NCBI GenBank assembly: GCA_963706955.1
Contig: CAVPOC010000006.1
Span: 1 to 64,000, forward strand
DNA length: 64,000 bases
From: an uncultured Verrucomicrobiae bacterium
GTDB lineage: Bacteria > Verrucomicrobiota > Verrucomicrobiia > Chthoniobacterales > Terrimicrobiaceae
Reading direction: 5' to 3'
In this document: positions 11,272 to 49,227 of the stretch, one piece after another
Layout: each line of letters opens with the position of its first letter
Position numbering within the stretch: position 1 is the first letter of the stretch
Translations under genes and position numbers: made by a program
Notes under the pieces: generated by a model
What the model saw: the letters and a program-made list of their open reading frames with translations, nothing else
Database searches by the model: none
Told to the model about the DNA's origin: nothing

Positions 11272-13728
11272 CTAGACCTTGACAGGGTCTACCTTCCAAA
11301 TATCTCGCGCGTAGGCACGGATTGCCCGGTCGCTCGAAAATTTCCCCATCCGGGCGGTATTAAGAATGGCCATTCTGGCCCAGTGCGCTTTGTCGCGGAA
11401 GGCAGCATCCACTTTTTTCTGGCATTCGCTGTAGGATTCGAAGTCCGCCAAGCAGAGGAACGGGTCGCTATAGTAGAGGTTATCGCGAAGCATGCTAAGG
11501 ACGTTGGGCGGTTCGTCGGGCGTGAAATAGTTTGATCCTACCCAGTCGACAACGGCGTGCAGTTCGTCGTTCTTTTGAAGATATTCCTGCGGATTATAGC
11601 CTTTCGCAACGAGGGCATTTACTTTCTCAACCGTCAGTCCAAAGATGAAGATATTTTCCTCGCCGACCTCCTCTTTTATCTCGACGTTGGCTCCGTCGAG
11701 CGTGCCGATGGTTAAAGCGCCGTTGAGCGCGAGTTTCATATTCCCGGTGCCTGAGGCTTCTTTGCCAGCGGTCGAGATTTGTTCGGACAAGTCGCCTGCC
11801 GGGACGATGCGCTGCGCCAGCGAAACGCGGTAATTGGGCAGAAAGACAACCTTGATCCGGTCTTCGATGCGCTTGTCATTGTTGATGCTTTTCGCCACGG
11901 CATTGATTGCCTTGATGATGCATTTGGCCATGTCGTAGCCAGGAGCGGCTTTGGCGGAAAAAACGAATACCCGCGGGGTAATCTCAAGTTCAGGGTTCTG
12001 TAGCAACCGACGATAGAGGGCAAGAATGTGCAGCAAATTCAAGTGCTGACGCTTGTATTCGTGCAAGCGCTTGACCTGCACGTCGAAGAGGGCCGCCGGA
12101 TTCACTTCGACTGCGCAATCTCTCTTGATGATTCGGGCAAGATCAAGTTTGTTGGCCTGCTTGACATTCATGAAATCTGCTTGGAACTGCGGGTCGTCGG
12201 CGAAGCTTTCCAAGGCGCGAAGCTTGTCGAGATTGGTCTCCCAACCATGGCCGATTCTGGAGGTGATCAGCGCGCTGAGGCGCGGATTACAGGCCAGCAG
12301 CCAGCGGCGCGGGGTTATCCCGTTCGTCTTGTTGTTGAACTTGCCGGGATAAAGAATGTCAAACTGCGGGAAAAGCTGCTTTTTGAGAAGTTTGGTGTGA
12401 AGCTCGGCCACGCCATTCACCGAGTGGCTGCCGACGACGGATAGATTCGCCATCCGCACCATCTGCATCCCACCCTCTTCGATCAGCGAGAGGGTCTGCT
12501 TCATCACGGTATCCCCGGGCCACTTCGCTTCCACTTGCTCGAGAAAGCGTTTGTTGATCTCGAAGATGATCTGAAGGTGGCGGGGAAGGACCTTTTGAAA
12601 TAGGCCGACGCTCCATTTCTCCAACGCCTCGGGCAGCAGCGTATGGTTGGTGTAAGAAAACGTGCGCGTGACGATTGACCATGCCTCGTCCCAAGGCATG
12701 CCATATTCGTCATGGAGGATGCGCTGGAGTTCGACCACCGCGATCGCCGGATGGGTATCGTTGAGTTGGATCGCGACCTTCTCAGGGAAGTCCTGCCAAT
12801 CCTCGTTTGCTCGCCGGAAGCGGCGGATGATGTCCTTGAGCGAACAGGCGACAAAGAAATACTGCTGCAGCAAGCGCAATTCCTTTCCGCTGTCCGTCTT
12901 GTCGTTTGGGTAGAGGACCTTCGAGATGGTTTCGCTATTGTTCTTTTCCCGGACGGCTTCCTCGTAGCCGCCGCGGTTAAACGCTTCGAAATTGAATTCC
13001 TCCGGCGCTCGCGATTCCCAGAGCCGCAGAAAATTGACTGTGTTTGTTCCGTAGCCGGGCACCGGAATGTCGTAGGGAATGCCAACGAGCTTTTTCCATC
13101 CCATCCAGCGTGGAACGTAGTTTCCACGGTCATCGAATACGTTTTCGACGTAGCCATAGACCTGGATCTCGGTGGCGTGTTCGGGTCGGACTATTTCCCA
13201 GGGTGTTCCATAGAGCATCCAGGCGTCGGGGAGTTCGACCTGATAGCCATTGCGGAATTCCTGCCTGAAGAGGCCATATTGGTAATGAATCCCGTAGCCG
13301 ATTGCCGGATAATCCAAGGTTGCCAGGGAGTCCAGGAAGCAGGCGGCGAGTCGGCCGAGGCCGCCATTGCCAAGACCCATATCGTACTCCTCGTGGCGAA
13401 GCTCCTCGTAATCCAACCCGAGTTCCTCGAGCGCGTCGGTCATATCTTCGTTGACTCCTGCGCTGTAAAGGCTGTTGGAAAAAAGACGCCCCATCAGAAA
13501 CTCGAGCGATAAGTAGTAGACCCGCTTGACGTTCTTGTTGTGGTGGACCGCCGCAGTAGCAATCATCCGCTCCACAATCATGCTTTGAACGGCCTTGGAG
13601 GTGGCTAGCCACCAGTCGCGCTTCGTGGCCGTGGACGCGTCTCGAGCCAATGTGAATTTCAAACTACCTTGGATCAATGCCTTAAGGCCAGGGACGGACC
13701 TGTCCAGCGCGGAATGGAACTCGCTCAT
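11272..13728 (-). CDS. glgP: Glycogen/starch phosphorylase
   Basis: [41 protein letters not shown] and the PLP motif EASGTGNMK. Confidence 0.97.
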
Positions 13729-34055: not shown

Positions 34056-34661
34056 ATGATTTCTTTTCTTGAAGGCGTGCTGGAGGAAGCGCTTCCCACG
34101 CAGATCATCGTTAATGTGCACGGCGTCGGCTATCACGTGATGATCCCTCTTTCAAGTTTTGAGCGGCTTTCCGAGCCGGGTTCTCCTGTAAAAATCCTTA
34201 CCCACCTGGTGGTTCGTGAAGATTCCCACACTCTCTATGGCTTTGGCACTTTGGCAGAGCGTGACCTGTTCCGGCTCTTGTTGAATCATGTCTCTGGCGT
34301 GGGGCCGAAGCTGGGTCTGGCGATACTCAGCGGCATGGCGGTTGAAGTGTTTAAGGCCGCTGTCGTTTCCAACGATATTGCAGCGATCTCGCGCATCAAA
34401 GGCGTGGGCAAAAAGACGGCTGAAAGAGTCGTTCTTGAGCTGAAGGACAAAGTTGGGGTCGCCGCAGAGTGGGAAGCGGCGAGTGCGGCCACCGCCCCGA
34501 GTGAGCGCGATCAAGCTATGCACGACGCGGTGCTGGCCTTGATCTCTCTCGGTTACAAGCAAGTGGAAGCCCACAAGGCAATCAAGCAGTGCCTGGCCGA
34601 GGCCTCCGGGCCGCTCGGAGCCGACGAGTTGGTCAGAACGGCTTTAAAGATTTTGGCATGA
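34056..34661 (+). CDS. ruvA: Holliday junction branch migration protein RuvA
   Basis: MISFLEG, VHGVGY, VREDS.TLYGF, VSGVGPKLG, GVGKKTAER and ALISLGY. Confidence 0.97.
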   Translation: MISFLEGVLEEALPTQIIVNVHGVGYHVMIPLSSFERLSEPGSPVKILTHLVVREDSHTLYGFGTLAERDLFRLLLNHVSGVGPKLGLAILSGMAVEVFKAAVVSNDIAAISRIKGVGKKTAERVVLELKDKVGVAAEWEAASAATAPSERDQAMHDAVLALISLGYKQVEAHKAIKQCLAEASGPLGADELVRTALKILA

Positions 34662-35974
34662 ATGTGGAGAAGGCGCAGCGTGCGGAAGCCATTCACTCCG
34701 CCTTGCCGGAAGGTGGCCTCTTCCACGAAAAGTCTTGGCGGGTCTCTCCGGACGCCTTTGTAATCGGCCGGAAGTTTGCTGAAGAGCTTGGAAAGCTTGG
34801 GTATCGTCTCCTGCGATTTGTCCGCGCCTGTAATCAACTCTATCGCTTCAGTGTCAGCGGACGTCAGCCTACCTGGATTGCAGAGCTCCTAGACCGCGGC
34901 AAACCTCGCGAACTGGTAGCCATGCAGCGAGAAAGGTCTCTCGCACTCGCAATCCCCAAGGTAATTCGTCCTGATCTCATCCTCACTGACTCAGGATATG
35001 TAATCGCCGAGCTCGACAACGTTCCCGGCGGCATCGGTCTGACCGCGTGGCTGGATCAGGTCTATTCGGACAATGGTGCGAGAATACTCGGCGGTACCGA
35101 AGGCATGCTCGATGGATTTGCTTCGATCCTTCCCGGCGGCGATATCGTCGTTTCCGAAGAAGCGGCGACCTACCGTCCCGAAATGGAGTGGCTGGCGGCT
35201 CGACTCAACGAATCGCGTTCAACCCTTGGCCACTGGCGCGTGGTGGACACTTTGCCGCGCGAAGACTGGCAATCAGAAGTCTATCGTTTTTTTGAGCTCT
35301 ATGACCTCGCCAATGTTCGTTGCGCCCGACAGCTGTGGGAGAAGGAACTCGCCGGTGAGCTGTCAGTGACACCTCCCATGAAGGCTGCGTTGGAGGAGAA
35401 GATGTGGTTTGCTCTTTTCTGGCTGAAGCCCCTGGAGTCGTTTTGGAGACGAGAACTCGGTGAACGCGCAATGCTGGCTCTGCGCAAGGTTATTCCGTAC
35501 ACCTGGTTGGTGGACCCTGAACCGCTACCCAGGCATGCGGTGCTTCCTCGCTTGGAGACGCATACCTGGGCCGAGGTGGCCCACTTCAGCCAGAAACAGA
35601 GGACTCTTATTCTTAAGATTAGCGGCTTTTCGGAGCACGCCTGGGGCTCCCGTGGTGTCGTGGTGGCACAAGATATGTCGCAAACGGCGTGGAAAGCTAA
35701 ACTCGAAAGCGCGTTGGCTGAGTTCAGCACCCACCCACATATATTGCAGCAATTTCACCAGGGGCGGTTGATCGGCCATGACTACCTTGATCCCGCGGCT
35801 GGCGAGCTTCGCCGAATGCGAGGGCGCGTTCGGCTGTGCCCCTACTACTTTGTCGGAGAAAAGACCGCGGTTTGCGGTGGGGCTTTGGCCACGATTTGCC
35901 CGGACGATAAGAAGCTCTTGCACGGGATGACCGACGCCATCCTCGTTCCCGCGGCGGTTGACATTTCAACTTAA
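34658..35974 (+). CDS. Hypothetical protein, probably circularly permuted ATP-grasp / glutathionylspermidine-synthase-like fold
   Basis: VIRPDLIL...AELDNVPGG, LEEK, LILK.SG....WGSRGV, ILQQF and VRLCPY; ATGA coupling with ruvA. Confidence 0.6.
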   Translation: MNVEKAQRAEAIHSALPEGGLFHEKSWRVSPDAFVIGRKFAEELGKLGYRLLRFVRACNQLYRFSVSGRQPTWIAELLDRGKPRELVAMQRERSLALAIPKVIRPDLILTDSGYVIAELDNVPGGIGLTAWLDQVYSDNGARILGGTEGMLDGFASILPGGDIVVSEEAATYRPEMEWLAARLNESRSTLGHWRVVDTLPREDWQSEVYRFFELYDLANVRCARQLWEKELAGELSVTPPMKAALEEKMWFALFWLKPLESFWRRELGERAMLALRKVIPYTWLVDPEPLPRHAVLPRLETHTWAEVAHFSQKQRTLILKISGFSEHAWGSRGVVVAQDMSQTAWKAKLESALAEFSTHPHILQQFHQGRLIGHDYLDPAAGELRRMRGRVRLCPYYFVGEKTAVCGGALATICPDDKKLLHGMTDAILVPAAVDIST

Positions 35975-37056: not shown

Positions 37057-37130
37057 GGAGCCTTAGCTCAATTGGTTAGAGCGCTGCCCTGTCACGGCAG
37101 AGGTTGCGGGTTCGAGCCCCGTAGGCTCCG
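37057..37130 (+). tRNA. tRNA-Asp (anticodon GTC)
   Basis: GGAGCCT acceptor stem, anticodon arm CTGCC-CTGTCAC-GGCAG and T-loop GGTTCGAGCC; CCA not encoded. Confidence 0.96.
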
Positions 37131-37206
37131 CTTCATTATGTCAGCGTCGGCTCTCATTGGGACAGTGGTCCTGCGCTGCTGTGCACAGCTGGGAGTTTCT
37201 TAGTTA

Positions 37207-37797
37207 TTAAGGCAGCGGCCACCCTCCGTAGCCGGCGCTGGGATCGAGCGGCGCAGGTGCGCGCTGATGAGTTCGCTGCGCGTATGTCTCATAGCTGACC
37301 AGCAGGACGCTCGCCTGCACAAGCGCTTTCTCGACGGGAGGTGGCTTCGGTTCGGCGAAAATGAGCCACTCGCAGGCGCGCATTGGCTCGGTCTCCACAC
37401 GTCGAAAGCTCCACCAGCTTTCGGCATCTCGCGGTATGCCGTAGATCGCACCAAAACCGGAGAAGTGGAACGCGGATTCTGCATCCTCGGCGGCCGGGCG
37501 CCCCGAATGGACGTTGAGTCGATGTTTATTTCTCATTTCCGCAAAGAGCCTGAACGAACCGCCACTCTTTTCCGTGCTCAGGCCCAACCAAAATGATTCT
37601 TGATCGGCGACGGGCACACAAAAGGTTCCCTCCTGGTCGCAGGCGACCGGCAGCATCCCAAGGCTGCGTATCGGGGTGCGGTGAATGCCTTCGGCCGGGA
37701 GGCGACAACGCTGGAAACTGACGCGCATCATCCCGAATAGACGCAGCGCGCCTTCCTCCAGGCGAGCCGCGCCTGGTTCCGGTGCGTCTCCGCTCAC
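37207..37797 (-). CDS. Hypothetical protein coupled to the caspase-like gene
   Basis: 196 aa; GTG start overlaps the caspase stop (GTGA). Motifs RVSFQR..LP, LG.LP, F.VP....ESFWL and C-terminal AP.PLD...GY.GW.LP. Confidence 0.7.
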   Translation of the reverse strand: MSGDAPEPGAARLEEGALRLFGMMRVSFQRCRLPAEGIHRTPIRSLGMLPVACDQEGTFCVPVADQESFWLGLSTEKSGGSFRLFAEMRNKHRLNVHSGRPAAEDAESAFHFSGFGAIYGIPRDAESWWSFRRVETEPMRACEWLIFAEPKPPPVEKALVQASVLLVSYETYAQRTHQRAPAPLDPSAGYGGWPLP

Positions 37798-40367
37798 TCG
37801 TCAAACGAGCCCGCTTCACTCAAAAGCGATGCCAGGGCGTGCGGAGGGACTCGCAGTTGTTTCGCGAAAGTGGAAATCATTGTTCGCTGATCTCCGTCCG
37901 CGGTCGCGCTGTCAGGAGCTGCCGTGGACGCCGCGCCACCGAAAGATGCGGTGGACACGTCGAAGGGCTCGCTCGGATCGTCCGCTTTGGTGATTTGCTT
38001 GGAGGCGGTTTCCAGCCAGCTCTTTAGTTGTTTGCTGCGAGCCTGTTTCGATTTTTCATCGTAGCCCCAAACGAAATAGCCGCTTACTGGAACGACCGCG
38101 CGGACGCGCTCCCACAGCTCGATGGGCAGCAACTCGGGCTGCGTCTGGCTTGCTTCGACGATGAGCTCCCAGCTGCGGGCAAAGAGTGGCGGCTGTCGAA
38201 AAGGCTTCCTCGCCCGTAAGCTTGCCGCAGGGCAGTGCAGGGAGAGCGCCTCCACATCGGGATGGTCATCACCCACCAGCGCGCGGAGATTTGTGACCAC
38301 GCCGTCCAACAGATTGAGCTTGGACGATGGGTTGGGTCGGCGTCGTTCCTCCTGCAACAAAAGATGTCCACCTAAAATACCGGCGATCGGATTCTGAAAA
38401 TTGCGCACGAGAATCTCTTCGAGCTCCCGATTTAGAACTCGCCGCTCGTTGACCATGGCGATGCGTGCCGACTCGAGCGTTTGCTCCAATGCAACGTCGC
38501 GCTGGCTGTCGCCTACTCGTCTCATCAGTACCGTCATGCGGTTGAAACGGACATCGGCGCCAGTCTTACCGGCGGCGAGGGCCAGCAAGAATAGCTCCAC
38601 TGTCCAACCTTCCGGAACCGTAAGTGCGCCCGCTAGCATTCTATCTCGTTCGTGAGGGTAGCGCACGAAGTAGGTTCCTGCTGCGACGGGAACCTGGTCC
38701 TCTACGTAGGGGTCGCCATCGGTGGACTGTTCGGGCAAATCCTTAAGCGCACGAACGACCTGACCAGCTGAATCAAGCAACTCGGTCCCTTGCCAGGGGC
38801 GAGCTTGATAGGGAGGAGCTTGCTGACCGCTCCAGACGCGCGCCATCAGGCGAATCTCGGCCGCGAGTGGCGGATCGCCGGACGCAGAAGCGGTTGGGAC
38901 CGGTGACCCGCTTTGCCATGTCTTGAGCACGCCCCGGTGGGCTTTACTCGTCAAGCCGGTGCCAGGCAGCGGAGCGGCGGAATTGACTGCCGCCGACGCC
39001 ATCGAGAGATCAGCCAGAGGATCGGCGAGCGCCGGAAGAGCCTCGAAACCCTCCTGGAGCGTGGAGAAATCCAGATCCTGATCTAGCAAGATGATGGATT
39101 CGGTCACCGTGTGCCCCACACGGATTTTGAGTTTATACACGCCGAAGGGAAATCCCGCCGTCAAGACTCCCCGCGATTGCGCCTGTTTTCTCAGTGTTTG
39201 GTCGATCAGAAATATCTCTGCCGTGGGCTGACGTGGATTCACCATCAAGACGAAGTTGTCGTCAGGGCCGCCGGGTGCGACCGGCGCGCCTTTGCCGCTG
39301 ACCTGGACCAGATGGCTCTGCGGGCCGGTGACCTCAAAACCGTGTCGCAGGTGAAGCTCAGGTATCGCGACCACATATAACCCGTTCTCGAGCATCCGGT
39401 TCACCTCCGACTGAACGGGGAAGTTGTGCGAGGTTGCTGGCAGACCGCCCCACAACGTTGCTTGCTTTCCGACTGCATCCACGGGAAATGTCAAAGTTAC
39501 GGAGGTGCTCTGCTTCTGCCGTCCGGTCGCAAAGACTAGCGTTCGGTCGGCTTTCACCACCTCCGGCTCTTTGGCGATCGTCGGGTTTTTCAGGTCGTCC
39601 TCTGTCAGGTAAGCCGACATCCCATTGAGGAGGTAGTCAGCTAGGCTTCGCCCCGTGATCTGACCTTCGGAATCGACCGCTCCTCCCTTTAAGCCCTCCA
39701 GAAGCGCCCAGGTAAAGACCCCGTGAATCTCGTCGTCTTTTGCTTTAATCGGCCGCTCGACCGTCTTGAACTGCCGTGGAGCGGCGAATGCAATGAACGT
39801 GCCTCCCATTCGGCCGAACCGTGCCGTCTTCTTCATGATATTCTCCGGGTCGATGCCGAACTCACGGTCCATGCAACAATCCATCCAAAGAACGTATTCT
39901 TTGAAGTAGAAGTTGTCTTGAAACCACTCCAGCCAACCCGAGGCATAGGAATGCCAGCCGTTATCTGGAGTCGCATTCGCAACATAGAGAGCTCCACGAT
40001 AGCGGCTCGGCGAAAACCCGTGGCCGGACATATATATATAAAGCCGCCGTCCGAGCATCGGGTCATCCCGGGAGGCTCGCGGCTTCTCTTTACCGGCCTG
40101 CACGAGCGCGTCGAATGCGTCGCGCAATCGCTGCTGCTGTGGTTCGCCCTTCGTCGCTGTGGGCTCACCCCGAAAGTCGGAGGTGCAGATCAAATTGATG
40201 TGATCACGATCGTCCGGCAGGTCGCCACCATCCTTGGCTTTAAGCCAATTCGCGACCTCGAGCGCGTCCCGTTCGGAACCTTTTAAGTCCGCCGGGTCGT
40301 CCGGTGAAATCCCCAGGCCGGGATATTTTGTGATACCGACGACGATTGCGTAGTCGTCCGCGGCCAT
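37794..40367 (-). CDS. Caspase-like (peptidase C14) multidomain protein
   Basis: AIVVGITKYP..L.G..RDA, catalytic His in YMSGHG, Cys in WMDCC and GVFTWALLEGL; about 550 aa of uncharacterised C-terminal sequence; no signal peptide. Confidence 0.85.
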   Translation of the reverse strand: MAADDYAIVVGITKYPGLGISPDDPADLKGSERDALEVANWLKAKDGGDLPDDRDHINLICTSDFRGEPTATKGEPQQQRLRDAFDALVQAGKEKPRASRDDPMLGRRLYIYMSGHGFSPSRYRGALYVANATPDNGWHSYASGWLEWFQDNFYFKEYVLWMDCCMDREFGIDPENIMKKTARFGRMGGTFIAFAAPRQFKTVERPIKAKDDEIHGVFTWALLEGLKGGAVDSEGQITGRSLADYLLNGMSAYLTEDDLKNPTIAKEPEVVKADRTLVFATGRQKQSTSVTLTFPVDAVGKQATLWGGLPATSHNFPVQSEVNRMLENGLYVVAIPELHLRHGFEVTGPQSHLVQVSGKGAPVAPGGPDDNFVLMVNPRQPTAEIFLIDQTLRKQAQSRGVLTAGFPFGVYKLKIRVGHTVTESIILLDQDLDFSTLQEGFEALPALADPLADLSMASAAVNSAAPLPGTGLTSKAHRGVLKTWQSGSPVPTASASGDPPLAAEIRLMARVWSGQQAPPYQARPWQGTELLDSAGQVVRALKDLPEQSTDGDPYVEDQVPVAAGTYFVRYPHERDRMLAGALTVPEGWTVELFLLALAAGKTGADVRFNRMTVLMRRVGDSQRDVALEQTLESARIAMVNERRVLNRELEEILVRNFQNPIAGILGGHLLLQEERRRPNPSSKLNLLDGVVTNLRALVGDDHPDVEALSLHCPAASLRARKPFRQPPLFARSWELIVEASQTQPELLPIELWERVRAVVPVSGYFVWGYDEKSKQARSKQLKSWLETASKQITKADDPSEPFDVSTASFGGAASTAAPDSATADGDQRTMISTFAKQLRVPPHALASLLSEAGSFDE

Positions 40368-40401
40368 AGCAGCGTTACTCTCTCGCAGGAGAGCTTTTCG
40401 G

Positions 40402-41103
40402 CTACGAGTAGGCTTCCCGGACGATCTGCTTGTCCGTTTCCGTGAGATTGGTGTTGAGGCCGGCCGAGAAGCCGTCCTGCGTCCATGCGAGCGGAATGGG
40501 ATACATCATGATCGACTCGGCGTCCACTGGTGAGCTGTGAACCGAGGCGGGATCATACTTCCTGAACATGTTGTTCTCAATCGTTTCGAGATCCCAGTTG
40601 TTCGGCGGGCCTTGCAGGTCTTGAATCACGGCGTCGCGGTTCCACTGGATGGCGCGATTCGGGTTTTGGTGTTCGTGGATCAGCCCGAGCGCATGACCAA
40701 ACTCGTGCAGCACCACTCGCCGCACCTGGTCGTCGGTGGACTCGTCTGTCAACCACCCATAGTTCATTGTCGGCTCACTCGCGTCGATCTGGCGCGCGAC
40801 CGTGCCCAGGTACGACCAGGATCCCCGGCCCGGTTCGAAGGCAATCCGGATATCGGCGTCGCCCTCCTGGACGAAATCGAACCTCAGATTCGCGATGGTC
40901 GTCCAGACCAAGGCGACATTCTTCACGCGCTCCTGCAGGGCGGGGCCGCCGTCGAGGAACTTTACGGTGACGGTTGATCCGGGAGTCCATTTCAATCCGC
41001 TGAGCAGTGCGGCTTTCGTTCCTTGCGCTTTTGCACGATCTGCACCGGTTAAGCTCTCGATCCCGGGGCACATGCAGTAGTAGTTCTCTTCGTTGTTACT
41101 CAT
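40402..41103 (-). CDS. Metzincin zinc metalloprotease (astacin/matrixin-like)
   Basis: HEFGHALGLIHEHQ zinc motif, Met-turn SIMMYP and ADIRIAF..GSWSYLG; no signal peptide. Confidence 0.9.
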   Translation of the reverse strand: MSNNEENYYCMCPGIESLTGADRAKAQGTKAALLSGLKWTPGSTVTVKFLDGGPALQERVKNVALVWTTIANLRFDFVQEGDADIRIAFEPGRGSWSYLGTVARQIDASEPTMNYGWLTDESTDDQVRRVVLHEFGHALGLIHEHQNPNRAIQWNRDAVIQDLQGPPNNWDLETIENNMFRKYDPASVHSSPVDAESIMMYPIPLAWTQDGFSAGLNTNLTETDKQIVREAYS

Positions 41104-41361
41104 AGTGTTATAGATGGTATTTGTTTCGGCGGGGTAAATGGAGTCTGCCGGCTACCGGATAGGTCCGAGAGTAGACACACGTCATGAAAATGCCAAGCGG
41201 CCAACCAGAGAGGTGGCTCGCGAAACGATCGGCCTCGCCCGCATGCGGTTCAACAAGCACTCTCGGTTTCGTTGGCAACTTCCTGTATCGCTGCATAAGC
41301 GAAGTTTAGTCGAATGCCAATATTATACTTACGCGAGCCGCTTGCTTAATCGAAGCGATGA

Positions 41362-42429
41362 TCATTCGCCGGCAGCTCCGAGACAGAACGCAATCAAACC
41401 CGCTGAGACCTCACGAATGACCTCTTCTGCTTCAGACCAAGGAGGTTGAAAGCTATCACCGCATTCGACAGTGAAGCCGTAGACCTTGGTCTTTGACGGA
41501 TCGGCAAAATGGCGACTGAATGCATAGTCATCGCTCGCACCCGACGTCGGATAAAGCCCGTAAGCTTGCTCAACACCGTAGTCACTACCACGAACTGCTT
41601 TCACAGCATCGTTCATTCGAGAGCTTAGTGTTTCTAGCGTCTCAAGATCCTCCGGGGGGAGGTATTCACCATATATTCGATCGTTTACACGGCCGCGGAC
41701 TCCGTCGAAGGTGCTGTTAGTAAAAGTCTGGTCTGGCTCTGTCGTCTGATTCTGGTCACTACCCCAGCCGTGTAGAATGACCGGGACCGCGCTGTGCACG
41801 TCCAGATGCCAACGAATCCGTGGAAACGCGTCGAGTAGCCAGACGACATTTCTAACCTCTGGTTCCGAGCCCGCTGTGGGGCCTCGATATACGTTCTTAT
41901 CGCAGGGATCCTCTGAGGCACTAACTCCCGAGTCCGGAGCAAATTTCGTCAAATGGTCCCACAAGAAATCGAAGTTGCGGTTGAGATCTACACCGACACA
42001 ATTTCCACTGCTAGGATGTGGCCGACGATTCTTGCGCCAGAGGGGATCGTTGGTCTGGCTGTAGTGTCGCCCGTCGGGGTTTACACATGCGCAGACGAAG
42101 AGATTCAGAGATTCCATTACTTGCCGAATCTCATTCGCCGTGAATGTCTTACTGCCATATCCCAGGCCTGTCCCCAACTGATATGCCTCGGCGAGGTCAG
42201 CGGCCAGCGAGATGAGGGCATCGGGGGGAACCCACTCCCTGGCATGGACGCCGCCTAGGATTAGAATTCCATCGGCTTCGTCGCTGCTTTTCGTCCCGAT
42301 GCGAAGGACATGAACCTGGCGACCTTCATGACTAAGATTTGGCGCTCGGAGCAACTCTGTCGTTGCCGGATAGGCTGCGGCCAGATTCTGCAATGCTGAC
42401 TGGATCTCGCCGACGTTTAGATAAGCCAT
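41362..42429 (-). CDS. Zinc carboxypeptidase, M14 family
   Basis: HAREW, NPDG, WRKNR, GVDLNRNF, SEPE, DVHS, SGASDDY and FTVE; no signal peptide or pro-domain. Confidence 0.93.
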   Translation of the reverse strand: MAYLNVGEIQSALQNLAAAYPATTELLRAPNLSHEGRQVHVLRIGTKSSDEADGILILGGVHAREWVPPDALISLAADLAEAYQLGTGLGYGSKTFTANEIRQVMESLNLFVCACVNPDGRHYSQTNDPLWRKNRRPHPSSGNCVGVDLNRNFDFLWDHLTKFAPDSGVSASEDPCDKNVYRGPTAGSEPEVRNVVWLLDAFPRIRWHLDVHSAVPVILHGWGSDQNQTTEPDQTFTNSTFDGVRGRVNDRIYGEYLPPEDLETLETLSSRMNDAVKAVRGSDYGVEQAYGLYPTSGASDDYAFSRHFADPSKTKVYGFTVECGDSFQPPWSEAEEVIREVSAGLIAFCLGAAGE

Positions 42430-42434
42430 AGTTT

Positions 42435-42752
42435 TTACTCCTTACGCCCCAGACCTCGAGGCACTTGGCCCCTAACTGAGAAGCGGTTTGTTCCTCCCAC
42501 CTCTTTTTGGCGTTCGCGGCCCACTTCGGTTGCATTCTCGAGAACGCGAATAGAGATGCGAGATGCTGCGCGACTCCTTCGAGCGACCTCTAACTGAGTT
42601 TCGGGAAGGTAAGCATCTATGGAGAACCTACCATCTTTCTGTCGAGGAGTGGCACGACACCCTAGATCGGGCTTAAATTCATCGGCAAAGGCTCGCAGAT
42701 CGGCCAATGTCGGGCCCTCAATTTTGACACGGATTATGGATTCTTTGTTCAT
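42435..42752 (-). CDS. Hypothetical protein (possible stand-alone pro-domain or chaperone of the M14 peptidase)
   Basis: 105-aa ORF ending 5 nt before the M14 start codon on the same strand. Confidence 0.7.
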   Translation of the reverse strand: MNKESIIRVKIEGPTLADLRAFADEFKPDLGCRATPRQKDGRFSIDAYLPETQLEVARRSRAASRISIRVLENATEVGRERQKEVGGTNRFSVRGQVPRGLGRKE

Positions 42753-44657
42753 GTGGCTGATTTGACAATTAAGCGTCCATCGGCTGGAAGTCAGCGGAAC
42801 GGTGGGACCCTTCCCGATAGTTGTTCAAAGCAAACGACTTTGACTTAATGACAGAAGTCTGCGCCCGTTCACGATACGCGCGCCTGCATCTGAGCACGTG
42901 ATGGATGCCAATGGCTAAGAAGTGACCCATGGCATAGAAATGATGCCATCAAGAGGCGCTGGAATCAATCACATAGTGACGGCGAGCCCTTGAAAGGGTC
43001 CTCGGTTGCCAGAAGGTGTATCGCCTTAGATCGGCAACGTTTTTCCCAAAGGCACCTGCCGTCGGGCGCAAATTAGGTGTATCTGCTCGGGCAGCCGATG
43101 CTCTAAACCATCTGCGCCGAGTTCTCGGGAGTCGACGGTTCGATTAACAACATCAGGACCACCAGCTACCAAGTTCCAGTTCCCCAACGGCTTTTCGAAT
43201 CACCAGCTTATTCAGCGACTTTTCCACGCCGGTTCAAGAAGCATGCGCCGGGGGACAGGTTAGATAATTCTGACCCGATCGCAGATGCGCCTGGTTCGCT
43301 AAGCTTTGGTAAATCACCGAAGCGAGTTCGCACAAGAATGCTTCTCGACATGTATGGTGAAGCCAAACAATCTCCGGCGAAATCAACGTTTCCCCTGCGG
43401 TAGGCGATCATCCTCAAGGCAAGGTTTACTTCAATATCATCGATTCAAGAGATCCCCGATTACCCGCTTGTAATCGCCTGAAGATCGGCACGCGACCTGC
43501 ATTCTGTGCGACCGAGCAGTTAGATCGCCGACAACCCAAACCGGAAGCGGGCTGTCTTCCATGTTCGACCAGGATTCCGACAGCCCGCCTCGGAACGAAC
43601 GTAGGCAACTAGCTGATGCGTCACGGCTGCCTACCAGGCCACTTTCGGTGGCTTGTTGGTTTTCTATGACATGTGACCTAAAATTAGACAAGTCAGGTGT
43701 AATACTGGTTTTGCCGTACGCGTGGTGAGGGCACCGTGGCCCAAGGGTTCACATGTCGGAGAGAAGGTCCGCCGAGGAACACGACGGCTGAAAGCTCCTG
43801 ATTTAGCGAAGTATTCTTGTCATTGCTCGGAACGCGTATGACTACGAGTGGGCCCTGCCATATGTCCGAAAATGCGGGCATAGAAGGTAAAAAAGTCGTA
43901 AAAGTTTGAGAGCGAGGGCCATACGTGCCATCGATGAGGGGGGATAGCCGTAATTCGAACGAACTTGTGGGAAAAATCTAGGAGCCATAGACTTACGAAG
44001 CGGGCTTTGAACGCGCCATGAAGTCTGTCCCGGCAGCACTAGTTTCTCTTTGATTTGGTGGGAATTCCGCAAATTCCTGGCTTGTCGCGTTACTGCGTGA
44101 AGGATCTAAGGCACTTTTGAACTTGCCTACTCTACACTTCGGGGAAGTATGGCCGCCCATTGATCCAGCAAATGGTGGAAAAGGGCCGCGGCCTAGCGAC
44201 CTCCTTTCTGCTTCGCACTCTTCAGCTAAAATGTCCGCAGATTGAGATGCAGAGAATCAGGTGTATGGCAATCCGAGGGCGCGGGCGACCAAGTCGATGC
44301 AGGCGATGCTAATCCCAGGAGTAGCGGCGGGCTGCCGTTAAGCCCACCGACTTCTTTCCCCGCAGATCCTTGGGCAGCCCGCTGTTGACAGAGGCGGGCG
44401 GCTCGCCCCAAAACAATGAAGGCTTGTGGTGGAGCCGCCCTATATGTCGGTAAATAGATAACACGGCTTGCTATCGCAAGTCAGTCGGGGGATTCCTTAT
44501 TTTGCGGTCGTGGGTTCCCTGAGGAGGATTGCGACGTATGCGCTTTGGCGCTCAACAAACCGATCGAGAGGCGGCATGCTTCATATGCGACGAAGAGAAC
44601 AGGTCAGTTGCGGGCGCTGACGCGATGCAAGTCTAGCGGTGCGGTCTAAGCGCGCGC

Positions 44658-45059
44658 TTATCCGTGACGGTCTGTGCGGATCGCGCCACATTCTTTCATA
44701 ATTGTTCCAGCCTGATCGGCGCGACTGGCCTCAGTCTTCACTAGAACGAATTCGCTGTGATGCAGGGTGATCGCGTAGCCCTCGATTACGTCGGCTGGAA
44801 GATTGTAATCGGCAAGATGTGCTTTAAACGAGCGGACGATGGCGCTGTGGTCGCGCTTGGATGGCAAAACCGGTTTCGCATTGTCCCAAAAAGTCGCCGG
44901 CGTATGACCCAAGGCAAACGCGATTGGGTCCCCCTTGGGCGCGTCTTCTGCCACGATCGACTCGTCATAAACTGTTTCGTCAAAGCCAGCGCGTGCCAAT
45001 TTGTTCACGGCCTTATCCAGGTCTCGTGCATTGTCGAATATTCCGACGATTGTGATCAT
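44658..45059 (-). CDS. Hypothetical protein (general-stress-protein-like beta-alpha-beta pattern)
   Basis: TIVGIFDN..D..KAV.KL..AGF N-terminus; Y...L...VLV....A..I...G C-terminus. Confidence 0.65.
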   Translation of the reverse strand: MITIVGIFDNARDLDKAVNKLARAGFDETVYDESIVAEDAPKGDPIAFALGHTPATFWDNAKPVLPSKRDHSAIVRSFKAHLADYNLPADVIEGYAITLHHSEFVLVKTEASRADQAGTIMKECGAIRTDRHG

Positions 45060-45484
45060 TTAGTTTTGCCGGGCGAAGGTTGATTTGTACGGCTCAAAAC
45101 AGCCTCGCATCGGCTCTAAACCTGAGCAAGAGGAATAGCGCGTTTTCTTCGGTAATCTCCTGCCGCAAAAACGACGATCTAGGTGATGTTCAACAACAAT
45201 CCGAGTATCCAATCAAAGATGTGCTTGCTCTTGGAGTAGCCGTGCGGATATCAGCTTGATCGCGTAACTCGATTCGAACGAACAGAGAAGTGAGATGTGA
45301 GCGCACCGCTCGAAAGAAGCTTGAGATTCATCGAGACCGGCAGAATTTCCCCTTTCGGGCCGGCCGATTTGATGCGAGTGACCACGGTCAGCCACATTTT
45401 GAGGGGAGGGACGGTTTGCCACCACGGCTGACAGTTGCGAAATTTTAGAAAAACAAGGAAAACTACCAATAAGAACTGCACACA

Positions 45485-46048
45485 ATGAAAGCACCCAAAT
45501 TTATCCTAGCTGTCCTGCTTAGCTCGGCAGGCCTGACTGCACACGCTGACACCTTCAAGATCGATCCGGTGCATTCCTCGATCGGGTTCAGCGTGAAACA
45601 TCTGGGAGTGACTGATTTTTACGGTCGATTCAACGACGTTTCCGGACAAGTTGTCTTCGACAAGGCCGATCCTTCCAAGAGTTCAGTCGAGGTCACCATC
45701 CCGGTCGAGAGCATTGATACGCACAATGAGAAGCGTGACCAACATTTGAAGAGCCCTGACTTTTTCAACGCCAAGCAGTTTCCGACGATCGTTTTCAAGA
45801 GCAAGAGCGTCGAAGGGGGTGGCGACACTTACAAGGCGACCGGCGATCTGACCTTGCATGGTGTCACCAAGCCTTTGACGTTGGAGATCAAGAGAGGGCC
45901 GGAAGGCAAGGGCATGGAGGGCGAAATCCGTGCGGGCGGCGAGACAGAGTTCACGATAAAGCGAAGTGATTTCGGCATGAATTTCATGCAGGGAGGTCTT
46001 GGTGACGAAGTAACCGTCCTTCTCAGCCTCGAAGGCGTGAAGCAATAA
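45485..46048 (+). CDS. YceI-family periplasmic lipid/polyisoprenoid-binding protein
   Basis: Signal peptide (AHA), IDPVHSSIGF.VKHLG, RDQHLKSPDFF, GDLTLHGVTK and IKRSDFG. Confidence 0.93.
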   Translation: MKAPKFILAVLLSSAGLTAHADTFKIDPVHSSIGFSVKHLGVTDFYGRFNDVSGQVVFDKADPSKSSVEVTIPVESIDTHNEKRDQHLKSPDFFNAKQFPTIVFKSKSVEGGGDTYKATGDLTLHGVTKPLTLEIKRGPEGKGMEGEIRAGGETEFTIKRSDFGMNFMQGGLGDEVTVLLSLEGVKQ

Positions 46049-47594: not shown

Positions 47595-48452
47595 ATGAAC
47601 AGAATTTATATCGCCCGAAATCGTCAGGCCCTTGGCCAGTTTTCTCCTGAGGAGGTGGCAGAAGGACTTGCCTCCGGAGAGTTCCTGCCAACCGACCTTG
47701 CCTGGCGCGAGCCGATGGAAACTTGGAAACCTCTTGATGAGTTCACGGATCTTCCGCCGGCAACGCGCTCGCTCGTTCCACCGGCGCTCCCGCAGCAATC
47801 GGCAGATTCGGAAATGGCAGTCGAGCCCGCCTGGGAACGTCGCAAGCAACTCGGCGCGTTTTCGGCACTCGTCGAGACCGTGCGTCAGGTCCTGGCCGCA
47901 CCTGTCGCGACCTTTAAAGCCATGAAACGCGAGGGCGGTCAGGCCACGCCATTGTTCTTTTACTTGCTAGTGACGACTTTCGCCACTTGGGCGGCCATCG
48001 CATATCAGCTCACCTTCATTATGATGAATCCTGAGGCGATACTCGGCCCCCTCGCCAAATCCCTGGATAGCGCTTCAATTATCGGGATCCACGTGTTCTT
48101 GATGGCCCTTTTTCCGATGCTTCTCATCTTAGTGGCCTATTGCGCTGCGGGAATTTTCCATCTCGTCTTTCAACTTCTTGGCAGCAGCAGCCAGCCCTTC
48201 GAAGTTACATTCCGTGCCTATTGCTACGCGGTGGCACCGGCTTCCGTATTTCGGTTGATTCCGATTTGCGGGGATGTTCTGTTTTTTGTTGCGGCCCTTG
48301 TGCTCCTGGTCTTCTCGTTTCGCGAAACATTGCGCGTTGACGGCGCACGAGCGACCATCGGTGTCATGGTGCCATCCTTGTTATGCTGCGGGTTTATCTG
48401 GGCCGCCTACACTTTAGCCGGAGGCGCTGTCGCGCAGGGCGTGCTCAAATGA
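47595..48452 (+). CDS. GYF_2 (DUF4339) plus Yip1-like membrane protein
   Basis: YIARN....GQFS...DLAWREPMETWKPL N-terminal domain; PAWE..; about 5 hydrophobic segments. Confidence 0.75.
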   Translation: MNRIYIARNRQALGQFSPEEVAEGLASGEFLPTDLAWREPMETWKPLDEFTDLPPATRSLVPPALPQQSADSEMAVEPAWERRKQLGAFSALVETVRQVLAAPVATFKAMKREGGQATPLFFYLLVTTFATWAAIAYQLTFIMMNPEAILGPLAKSLDSASIIGIHVFLMALFPMLLILVAYCAAGIFHLVFQLLGSSSQPFEVTFRAYCYAVAPASVFRLIPICGDVLFFVAALVLLVFSFRETLRVDGARATIGVMVPSLLCCGFIWAAYTLAGGAVAQGVLK

Positions 48453-49227
48453 TCCGGAGGATGGGCCCGGGAGCGTCCTGGCAAGCGCACTGAACGCTGG
48501 CTTGAGCAGCGCTTGGGGAGTTTGCCAGACCTTCCAGCGCGCAATCGAGCGCCAGGTGGGGAGAGTTACAATCGCGGCTGAGATGACCGAGAATAATATG
48601 TTGGAGTGGAGCCTCAAGCTCGGCGAGGACGCGAGCGGCGGCGGTGTTCGAAAGATGTCCGTGCCGCGAGAGGATACGTTGTTTAACCGACCAGGGGCGA
48701 CGGAAGTCATTCTGCAGAAGGGCTTCGTCGTGGTTTGTCTCGATGAGGATCGCGCGAACTCCGCGAAGTGCGTCAAAAACCAGACGGGTTGCATAACCGA
48801 GGTCCGTAAGCACCCCGAAACAAGATCCGTCGCAGGAAATTCGAAATCCGACGGGATCCACCGCGTCGTGCGGAACAGAGAATGCCCGAATGACAAAGCT
48901 TCCAATCCGAAACTCCGCTCCCGTCTGGAAGAATCTCCAGTCGCCATGCACCAAACCGAAATCTTGAAGAACTCGGCCGGTGAGCACGTTGCAAAATAAC
49001 GGCACTTGGTGACGCGTCAGCATTACCTTCAACGCGCTCGTATGGTCGCCATGTTCATGAGTCAGGAGAATGCCTGACAGTTGCTCCGGGCATAACCCCA
49101 TCGCGAGCAGGCGGGCGCTCAGTTGCTTGGCACTCAGACCCGCGTCGATGAGAAACGAGGCCGTCTCGTTGCGGACGAGAGTGGAGTTGCCTTCGCTGCC
49201 ACTCGCCAGCGTGATCACCTCGAACAT
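48445..49227 (-). CDS. MBL-fold metallo-hydrolase (YycJ/WalJ-like)
   Basis: [38 protein letters not shown] and HLS. Confidence 0.92.

Follow-up and report, generated by a model that had tools for sequence, protein, structure and literature searches.

A 64,000-nucleotide stretch of contig CAVPOC010000006.1 (assembly GCA_963706955.1, an uncultured bacterium of the Terrimicrobiaceae), referred to as the window, carries five co-directional minus-strand genes at 37207-42752, next to a tRNA-Asp gene; three of them encode proteases of different families. An earlier note, made from the sequence alone, had taken the five genes for a single proteolytic conflict or signalling system. The question raised by the locus is whether the genes belong together, and what one protease may do to another. 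The locus very probably consists of two independent modules, carried by an accessory insert: a pair, coding for a small protein (p105) and an M14 carboxypeptidase, and a triad, coding for a metzincin, a caspase-like protein and a small protein of 196 aa (p196). The triad is tentatively interpreted, with a confidence falling a little short of evenly balanced, as a variant of the Canu-type caspase/pro-enzyme defence, where a latent metalloprotease replaces the pro-nuclease: a specific caspase-to-metzincin immune mechanism.

Gene content of the locus

In order of transcription, the list of open reading frames (ORFs), with their translations, includes p105 (42435-42752), a small partner of the 105-aa class upstream of M14; the M14 zinc carboxypeptidase, 355 aa (41362-42429; Pfam PF00246, 8.2e-55); the metzincin, 233 aa, first gene of the triad (40402-41103; Pfam Matrixin and Astacin); the caspase-like multidomain protein, 857 aa, its central gene (37794-40367), assigned by an AlphaFold2 (AF2) model and Foldseek; and p196, its third gene (37207-37797), an ORF whose AF2 model is an all-beta sandwich. 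All five are on the minus strand and converge on the tRNA-Asp(GTC) gene, found by ARAGORN on the plus strand at 37057-37131 (Rfam: 37057-37130, 70.8 bits), at the edge of the variable site described below. The last stop codon is 76 nt from the tRNA 3' end. p105 is separated from M14 by 5 nt, M14 from the metzincin by 258 nt (41104-41361, the spacer between the two modules) and the metzincin from the caspase by 34 nt; caspase and p196 overlap by 4 nt. The 76-nt distance, the 34-nt gap and the 4-nt overlap are as first described. A scan of the 258-nt spacer against shuffled sequences found no promoter or terminator signals above the shuffled expectation. The five genes are more than chance ORFs: homologues of every one of them, 25-97% identical, occur in other genomes and in metagenomes. 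Absence of a signal peptide, wherever mentioned, is a by-eye reading of N-termini and not the output of a predictor.

Two modules rather than a five-gene system

Gene neighborhoods were compared in 37 triad loci from species-representative genomes, retrieved with an alignment of the caspase-like protein. They span Verrucomicrobiota, Alpha-, Beta- and Gammaproteobacteria, Actinomycetota, a metagenome-assembled genome (MAG) of Limnocylindria (Chloroflexota) and an Eremiobacterota MAG. A metzincin gene adjoins the caspase gene in 35 loci out of 37, upstream in 34 and downstream in L044; as for the exceptions, L038 has no metzincin, and L043 is cut by the contig end. A p196 gene, detected by a hidden Markov model, directly follows the caspase gene in 25 of the 37; two of the 12 loci where it was missed end too soon to judge. 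The tight linkage of the three genes, noted from the window, is therefore a feature of a unit recurring across phyla. All-against-all clustering of all ORFs within 8 kb on either side revealed no further gene family common to triad loci, except antisense shadows.

M14, among the same 37 loci, is found near the triad only in L010, a contig of the same-genus genome G007. In 34 of them no M14 is present within 8 kb or up to the contig end, and of the remaining three, two do not extend far enough to judge. In the reverse test, the M14 protein was used as query against metagenome contigs and 44 loci were obtained. p105 is directly upstream of M14 in all of the 35 loci having at least 320 nt of upstream DNA; the triad, as judged by its metzincin, follows M14 in only 4 of the 20 with at least 600 nt downstream, and is missing from 16. 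M14 identity is at least 87% in all four, and one 87% relative (L093) is without triad.

Since each mostly occurs without the other in the loci surveyed, the p105-M14 pair and the metzincin-caspase-p196 triad are considered independent units, adjacent only in this Terrimicrobium-like lineage. Of the system originally proposed, the triad stands as a conserved unit, while p105-M14 is to be taken out of it. A single cascade, where M14 and p105 would trim or regulate the products of the two endopeptidases, is very unlikely: it agrees with the presence of all five genes in one insert, with the adjacency kept in the four related metagenome contigs, with the location of p105-M14 elsewhere beside genes for cytoplasmic endopeptidases, and with a presumed preference of M14 for basic C-termini, which would fit trimming after an Arg/Lys cut; yet it is contradicted by both surveys, where the two modules are found apart even at 87% M14 identity, and by the 258-nt spacer between them.

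Within the triad, pairwise identities of caspase and metzincin over 25 loci, where pairs are not independent, show a Pearson correlation of 0.54 and a Spearman correlation of 0.34. This moderate correlation is compatible, weakly, with co-inheritance of the two genes.

An insert at tRNA-Asp

The site is found without the five-gene block, and with conserved flanks, in the related genome G017, as shown by both gene order and blastn. When the window is aligned by blastn to the corresponding contig (L051), homology ends at 37133 and restarts at 43537; the insert (37132-43536, about 6.3 kb) includes the five genes and about 0.8 kb of non-coding DNA upstream of them. The gene order common to both is ruvA, p461 (coding for a protein of 461 aa), rpoZ, smpB and tRNA-Asp, followed by p133 (coding for a protein of 133 aa), YceI, AhpC, Yip1, a metallo-beta-lactamase (MBL) gene and thyA; in G017 only 1.26 kb separate tRNA-Asp from p133.

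Different DNA follows tRNA-Asp in other relatives (loci L047-L052): a phage-type integrase, 75 nt from the tRNA, in G005; three or four transposase genes in G004; ORFs without assigned function and a DDE transposase in G001; other genes in G009. Because the cargo differs among relatives, the tRNA-Asp 3' flank is a hot spot for insertion in this genus. Presence/absence polymorphism at a tRNA 3' flank, one mark of a tRNA-linked integrative island, is observed. Other expected signs are missing: the last 14-29 nt of the tRNA, allowing up to 2 mismatches, are not found again in 37132-46000; no integrase is found in the window when the five genes and 13 ORFs of the flanks are scanned; the GC content of the insert is like that of its flanks, with no anomaly. 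Insertion at the tRNA 3' end, suggested from position alone, is therefore supported by the comparison with G017 and by the variable cargo of relatives, not by an integrase or a tRNA-derived repeat.

The distribution of the genes is patchy. The caspase gene is present in 4 out of 19 genomes of the genus, including the genome under study, and in none of the 22 other relatives searched; together with the empty site of G017, this places the locus among accessory rather than core regions, as had been supposed. In G001 and G010 the triad is found at another locus, without M14; its spacing is almost the same, with 33 nt instead of the 34 nt of the window between metzincin and caspase, followed by the 4-nt overlap. 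In G010 the reading frames of the triad are interrupted. Among sampled genomes of the phylum, the metzincin family is matched in 3 out of 401, and p105 in 3 out of 301, two of them marginal. Metzincins of Verrucomicrobiota copies are about 60% identical to proteobacterial and actinobacterial ones.

The caspase-like protein

The central protein of the triad is unmatched in Pfam at E <= 0.01; 17 of the 120 homologues listed carry a precomputed PF00656 match. Two further matches are below threshold: NCBIfam caspase_w_EACC1 (38.4 bits, cut-off 140) and PADLOC 'caspase' (8.4e-7). The AF2 model of the whole protein has a predicted local distance difference test score (pLDDT) of 78 and a predicted template modelling score (pTM) of 0.81. 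When the model is compared by Foldseek to known structures, the caspase-Ig3 region of MALT1 is matched with E 1e-7 and probability 1.0; metacaspases, caspase-3 and caspase-9 are also found. Judging from the model, the fold is caspase-like, clan CD/C14.

The caspase domain (C14 fold; aa 1-265, 39573-40367, minus strand, as for all parts of the protein) features His116, Cys165 and Asp34, all invariant. The first two, forming the expected dyad, are invariant in 20 aligned homologues and are found within the motifs YMSGHGFS and WMDCCMD of the translation. A profile search against PDB sequences (E 0.008) aligns Asp34 with Arabidopsis metacaspase-4, where this position is the Asp of GCVND; it corresponds to the S1-pocket Asp of metacaspases, with a probable role in their Arg/Lys specificity. 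The loop right behind the catalytic Cys (aa 168-177) has a pLDDT below 50.

Three beta-sandwich, immunoglobulin (Ig)-like domains follow (aa 269-346, 352-434 and 503-617; 38517-39563), as delimited by AF2 secondary structure and pLDDT; the linker between sandwiches at aa 438-500 is of low confidence. A conserved alpha-helical domain comes next (aa 625-795, 37983-38495; pLDDT mostly 84-95): it bears no family name, and its invariant residues in the homologue alignment are E632, R642, H668-L669-L670, P703-D704, C712 and S732-W733. It is a candidate sensor or regulatory part. The protein ends, after a disordered linker (aa 796-819), with C-terminal helices (37812-37910) containing the motif L-x-[LIV]-P-[PA]-x-A-L, which is kept whether or not a p196 gene lies downstream.

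Full-length members of the family are found in Verrucomicrobiota, Alpha-, Beta- and Gammaproteobacteria, Actinomycetota, Chloroflexota and Eremiobacterota. With a profile of the family, 1596 cluster representatives are recovered at E <= 1e-30, fragments and split forms included; about 65 of the best 150 of these 1596 cover nearly the full profile. Apparent split forms, among the rows listed (P0285, P0300-P0302, P0293-P0298 and others), consist of a protein of about 350 aa (profile positions 1-350, caspase and Ig) and one of about 490 aa (360-820, later sandwiches and helical domain). One such form, of 340 aa and 467 aa, is located at L046:7995-10417.

The metzincin as a putative zymogen

The metzincin scores above cut-off for two Pfam families, Matrixin (35.3 bits, cut-off 24) and Astacin (30.3 bits, cut-off 22.5). 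Its zinc site, HEFGHALGLIHEH (HExxHxxGxxHE), and the Met-turn SIMMYP are intact: H133, E134, H137, G140, H143, E144 and M199-M200-Y201 are invariant in 21 sequences. A Glu after the third zinc His and a Tyr in the Met-turn are marks of the astacin type; both extras (E144 and Y201) are among the invariant residues of the family. With the motifs of this protein, the dyad and model of the caspase and the Pfam match of M14 (the last two examined by AF2/Foldseek and Pfam, respectively), the presence of three intact proteases of different families is confirmed.

The NCBIfam model NF050131, 'beta-glucuronidase AbsR1', is matched at residues 52-232 (8.9e-36; 123.6 bits, cut-off 650): by this score, the metzincin is a relative of AbsR1, not an equivalog. 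AbsR1 is SCO6992 of S. coelicolor, assigned to cd04327, 'MMP-like subfamily 3' (MMP: matrix metalloprotease), and is reported to bind zinc, to be inactive as a protease when tried on casein or skim milk, to act as a beta-glucuronidase and, when over-expressed, to stimulate antibiotic production (PMC9705864). The two proteins share the subfamily, as indicated by the same model; SCO6992 differs by its length, 359 aa with extra regions, and by its described neighbor, the divergently transcribed SCO6993. Zinc binding without general protease activity fits latency, or narrow specificity.

Latency of the metzincin is suggested by its N-terminus. The candidate pro-segment (aa 1-30, 41014-41103, minus strand) contains Cys10, a variable linker and Lys30, just before Ala31-Ala32. 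In 29 sequences Cys10 is kept in 28, Lys/Arg30 in 29, Ala31 in 23 and Ala32 in 26; the linker from Cys10 to Lys/Arg30 ranges from 11 to 21 residues, with no conserved sequence. As far as sequence goes, residues 1-30 resemble a short pro-segment, in which Cys10 would block the enzyme and the basic residue would be the place of cleavage; a cut at this point would leave Ala-Ala as the new N-terminus, as in mature astacin. The comparison with astacin zymogens (MEROPS M12A) and cysteine-switch pro-enzymes of the MMP type extends to HExxHxxGxxHE, the Tyr of the Met-turn, a short N-terminal pro-segment, the Ala-Ala mature end and a conserved Cys; the metzincin differs in that it is cytoplasmic, with no signal peptide, in that its pro-segment has only about 30 residues, and in that its latency and cleavage site are putative.

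The reverse hierarchy, where the metzincin would come first, to activate or regulate, and the caspase-like protein would be an executioner with many targets in the cell, is quite unlikely. Such an order would be like that of the type III-B CRISPR SAVED-CHAT cascade, which ends with a prokaryotic caspase; both enzymes of the triad keep intact catalytic residues, and a possible processing site of the caspase is offered either by the low-confidence loop at aa 168-177 or by the disordered linker before the C-terminal peptide. The opposite direction is indicated by the pro-segment-like features, which are on the metzincin, and by the large, variable Ig and helical region on the caspase, typical of a sensing component. 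It is also indicated by conservation: median pairwise identity is 57% for the metzincin versus 36% for its caspase partner, as expected of an effector acting on conserved targets.

The p196 protein

No match to p196 is found in Pfam, NCBIfam or PADLOC; its 86 homologues, also without a Pfam domain, are named 'hypothetical' or 'uncharacterized' in 60 cases and carry no source name in the other 26. The AF2 model of the all-beta sandwich has a pLDDT of 87.6 and a pTM of 0.85. Foldseek against PDB gives nothing at E <= 1e-3, and the best Z in the VIA wide search is 5.6 (PmoD, alpha-2-macroglobulin MG domain), as for a generic sandwich. No function can be drawn from the fold search, the result being a generic sandwich only; ESM Atlas gives only unnamed clusters. 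An N-terminal strand with the motif SFQR is conserved, and so is the disordered tail at the very C-terminus, of consensus GY-x-GW-[RL]-LP, here GYGGWPLP. In 12 of the 25 loci where p196 follows the caspase gene, the two reading frames overlap, by 4 or 8 nt at the caspase stop, in line with translational coupling. A predicted complex of caspase aa 270-857 (the part behind the protease domain), metzincin and p196 aa 20-196 (the scored partner) scored 0.50, 0.00 and 0.00 in three runs, the mark being 0.32, a result that speaks neither for nor against an interaction.

Genes next to the triad

Up to three ORFs on each side of the triad were scanned, 187 out of 193 with Pfam and 180 out of 193 with PADLOC. 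Neither scan covers the six ORFs of L030, which nearly duplicates L029, and the PADLOC scan does not cover seven ORFs of L010, L013 and L015. Immune or conflict-type neighbors are found in 9 out of 36 loci, a raw count without a background rate; the families are TIR, CHAT, patatin, NucA-trypsin, TPR-S, NYN, DUF4062 and gated-type MBL. L024 (G010:C2) and L028 (G001:C28) feature NucA-trypsin, Lipase_3, TPR-S and a patatin, the last of which matches PADLOC phospholipase effectors; NYN and an rve integrase are found in L029, DUF4062 in L031, TIR and a CHAT/TPR-S protein of 1755 aa in L032, CHAT in L035, patatin and TIR in L036. In L037 and L039 an MBL gene matches PADLOC LmuA (1.4e-59 and 4.6e-59, respectively), as well as the Avs1a and DRT MBL models.

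Within 6 kb on either side of the triad in L024 and L028, a cluster is present of a NucA-endonuclease/trypsin fusion, a class-3 lipase, an M43 peptidase, a TPR-S protein of 683 aa and a patatin-like phospholipase; it looks like a defence island. In L021 an MBL homologue, 38% identical, is located at 12353-13387, 1.3 kb downstream of the triad.

These neighbors bear on the possibility that the triad does not serve immunity at all, being instead an accessory intracellular module for regulated proteolysis or signalling, in stress response, development or secondary metabolism. Such a role is unlikely. It would agree with the stimulation of antibiotic production by SCO6992, the nearest named relative of the metzincin, as reported for its over-expression (PMC9705864), with the ordinary genes flanking most triads, and with the lack of matches to models of known defences, the weak caspase match excepted. 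It is not what the very patchy, cross-phylum spread would suggest, with 4 out of 19 genus genomes positive and metzincins about 60% identical across phyla, nor the insertion at a hot spot for mobile DNA, nor the canu-like, TIR, CHAT, patatin and NucA-trypsin neighbors of the nine loci.

Comparison to known systems

The published precedent closest to a defence role of the triad is Canu (PMC12799240; Tuck et al., Science 2025), where proteases encoded as partners switch on gated MBL pro-nucleases, and canu loci defend E. coli against T4. CanA, from Klebsiella aerogenes, is described as a MALT1-like caspase with a C-terminal Ig-like fold; CanB co-purifies with it, and the CanAB complex turns CanC into an active nuclease. 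Because of this precedent, the reading of one protease as activator of another, put forward when the locus was first described, gains a published parallel in a protease that activates a pro-enzyme.

Several traits are shared. Both systems feature a MALT1-like caspase with an Ig-like fold, the likeness of the triad being structural and CanA being known by its description in PMC12799240. In both, a small partner of an unnamed family lies beside the caspase (CanB; p196), the loci are variable and accessory, and a separate gene encodes a latent-looking hydrolase, the CanC nuclease or the triad metzincin. In two Arthrobacter loci the triad has a canu-like trio beside it: at L037:3715-7218 and L039:3711-7214 (Arthrobacter mangrovi and Arthrobacter sp. 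USHLN218) a C14 gene, a gene for 149 aa and the MBL gene lie directly upstream of the triad, in the same direction, following the CanABC order and abutting the triad. Their MBL genes are of the LmuA/Avs/DRT-associated family, which is also the subject of PMC12799240. The caspase domain of the window is 27% identical to the neighboring L037/L039-type C14 over 255 residues (E 5e-6).

The differences concern the candidate pro-enzyme, which is an upstream astacin-like zinc protease in the triad and a downstream gated MBL nuclease in Canu, and the caspase, which is longer in the triad by about 590 residues, accounted for by three sandwiches and the helical domain. A single MBL-fold gene lies in the vicinity, at 48445-49227 of the window; it is part of the conserved flank, also present in G017. 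The triad is not filed as Canu because the MBL nuclease is absent from the operon of the window. The main text and one supplement of the Canu paper (PMC12799240) make no mention of metalloproteases, and no paper was found in the literature linking a caspase-family gene with this metzincin family, or describing a caspase-metzincin operon.

Human MALT1 (PDB 7PAW, 4I1P, 3V4L and others) resembles the caspase-like protein in having a caspase domain directly followed by an Ig-like domain, as found by Foldseek (E from 1e-7 to 1e-5, probability 1.0). Identity is 10-12%; the caspase of the triad has neither death nor N-terminal Ig domains, and its helical domain and tail are unmatched in MALT1.

EACC1-caspase is a two-gene conflict system, where the 5' gene codes for EACC1, a protein with a single transmembrane (TM) segment (PMC7159879; Kaur, Burroughs, Iyer, Aravind, eLife 2020). 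The triad is similar in its caspase-superfamily protein with a variable C-terminal region and a constant partner gene at the 5' side, and the best NCBIfam match is of the EACC1-associated type. Identity with this system was ruled out: the 5' gene of the triad encodes a soluble metzincin, not a single-TM protein, and the score stays at 38.4 bits, well under the cut-off of 140. A bacterial gasdermin-protease system was also rejected, since none of the five proteins matches gasdermin in Pfam or PADLOC, and p196 is an all-beta sandwich.

A proposed mechanism for the triad

From gene order, motifs and predicted folds, we infer the following scheme, in which the triad would be a self-contained intracellular conflict system, spread by horizontal transfer. 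The caspase-like protein, possibly with p196, would act as sensor and activator. The metzincin would be a latent astacin-like zymogen, kept inactive by the short segment at its N-terminus, where Cys10 may serve as zinc ligand. Upon a trigger, such as phage infection, the caspase would cut the metzincin after Lys/Arg30, exposing Ala31; the freed metalloprotease would then degrade conserved proteins of the cell or of the phage, leading to growth arrest or abortive infection. The p105-M14 pair is very probably a separate, unrelated mobile module beside the triad. A wider statement, according to which metzincin-caspase(-p196) is an undescribed, widespread immune system, with a MALT1-like caspase firing a latent astacin-like metalloprotease by one cut after the invariant Lys/Arg, in a protease-to-protease zymogen cascade that parallels Canu but has a proteolytic executioner, and p105-M14 is at the same time a portable finishing module, trimming the products of endopeptidases, is rather doubtful as a whole.

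A number of observations count against the scheme. p196 is absent from about 10 assessable loci, and is hence not essential to the caspase-metzincin pair; by sequence comparison, it does not resemble the product of the small gene that lies between C14 and MBL, where CanB would be, in the Arthrobacter locus. The pro-nuclease that defines Canu is lacking from the operon, as tblastn with the LmuA-type MBL of L037 detected nothing in the window. Neither the metzincin nor p196 is represented by a PADLOC model, and the caspase is matched only weakly. Metabolic, transport or unannotated genes are the nearest neighbors in 27 out of 36 loci, and the immune-type neighbors of the other nine, a raw count, are no evidence of enrichment in defence islands; as for the neighborhood analysis proposed at the outset, the result is that three genes co-occur and five do not. 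Finally, Arg-Ile-Ala-Ala is found in a distant metzincin (G292) with no caspase gene within 1.5 kb. The basic residue before Ala-Ala is therefore not shown to be specific to caspase-linked metzincins, and the Lys/Arg-Ala-Ala junction may be a general feature of the metzincin family; the idea of such a specificity was abandoned as unsupported, since the single unlinked relative found has the motif as well.

Caspase-driven activation of a pro-enzyme is a principle of bacterial defence only recently shown, for the Canu nuclease (PMC12799240). If the scheme for the triad is true, a metalloprotease would join the effector types controlled by bacterial caspases, beyond that nuclease, and the system would represent a simple two-enzyme zymogen cascade with a defined candidate cleavage site. 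The metzincin is so strongly conserved that its target in the cell may be expected to be conserved as well. The triad occurs in at least six phyla, and the family includes over 1,500 sequence clusters at E <= 1e-30, the neighborhood being examined in 37 loci.

The p105-M14 pair

The neighboring carboxypeptidase belongs to a separate two-gene unit, and its annotation is to be corrected in this sense. The M14 protein matches PF00246 with 186.9 bits (cut-off 21.6), residues 9-340 covering profile positions 1-282 of 286, and contains the HAREW motif. It begins with the catalytic domain, with neither pro-domain nor signal peptide. An Asp of this protein presumably sits where carboxypeptidase B has the residue for its preference for basic C-termini.

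Homologues of p105 are about 100-110 aa long and share a nearly invariant end, ...RG-x-VPRGLGRKE (alignment A3). No Pfam or PDB sequence match was found, either by scanning 23 members against Pfam at E <= 10 or by a profile search against PDB. The best named look-alike in ESM Atlas is the M14 pro-peptide family (Propep_M14), with a score of 0.85; identification of p105 as an M14 pro-peptide was not retained, as this lead is not backed by the Pfam and PDB profile searches. By analogy, p105 is probably a trans-acting chaperone or inhibitor, similar to a pro-domain, for a carboxypeptidase of the cytoplasm. The analogy is with the activation domains of pro-carboxypeptidases and with tail-inserting inhibitors: p105 is the constant partner of an M14 without a pro-domain of its own, and has an invariant C-terminal tail. 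Unlike activation domains, it is encoded by a separate gene, in a cytoplasmic setting, and has no match to Propep_M14 at the sequence level.

In some loci the pair is flanked by genes for endopeptidases. In L064-L066, which are of one lineage, a gene for an S8 subtilase comes immediately before the pair; L062 has a serpin and two trypsins, and L060 has a C11 clostripain. These endopeptidases are without signal peptides. Their presence is a weak indication that p105-M14 may be recruited to endopeptidases, M14 working with the neighboring one.

Flanking sequences and transcripts

Apart from two tRNAs, no Rfam family is matched in the window. The region upstream of p105 (42753-44657, about 1.9 kb) contains no ORF of at least 100 aa and no Rfam match; two blocks, at 43537-43718 and 44326-44522, are 76-84% identical to the DNA found in G017 between tRNA-Asp and the p133 gene. 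The 133-aa protein p133 (44658-45059), at the far edge of the insert, belongs to no Pfam family and is 78% identical to its counterpart in G017, located beside YceI. The protein of 461 aa (34589-35974), encoded between ruvA and rpoZ/smpB, is also without a Pfam family, and is kept at 81-93% identity in 6 out of 6 relatives examined.

Contigs from four soil and rhizosphere RNA libraries, from three studies, match parts of all five genes; the strand is not shown by the contigs, and DNA carry-over is possible. Four genes are matched at 98-100% identity, the caspase gene only through divergent contigs (about 95-97%); large parts of this gene are uncovered in the four runs, which are uninformative on its expression. 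Some contigs run across the spacer from metzincin to caspase (40319-40469), others across the overlap of caspase and p196 (37712-37929) or from p105 into M14 (42292-42523 and 42416-42896). They may be seen as a weak hint to transcription of the five genes. The DNA itself is found in metagenomes of soil and rhizosphere from six studies, not counting the one that may be its source.

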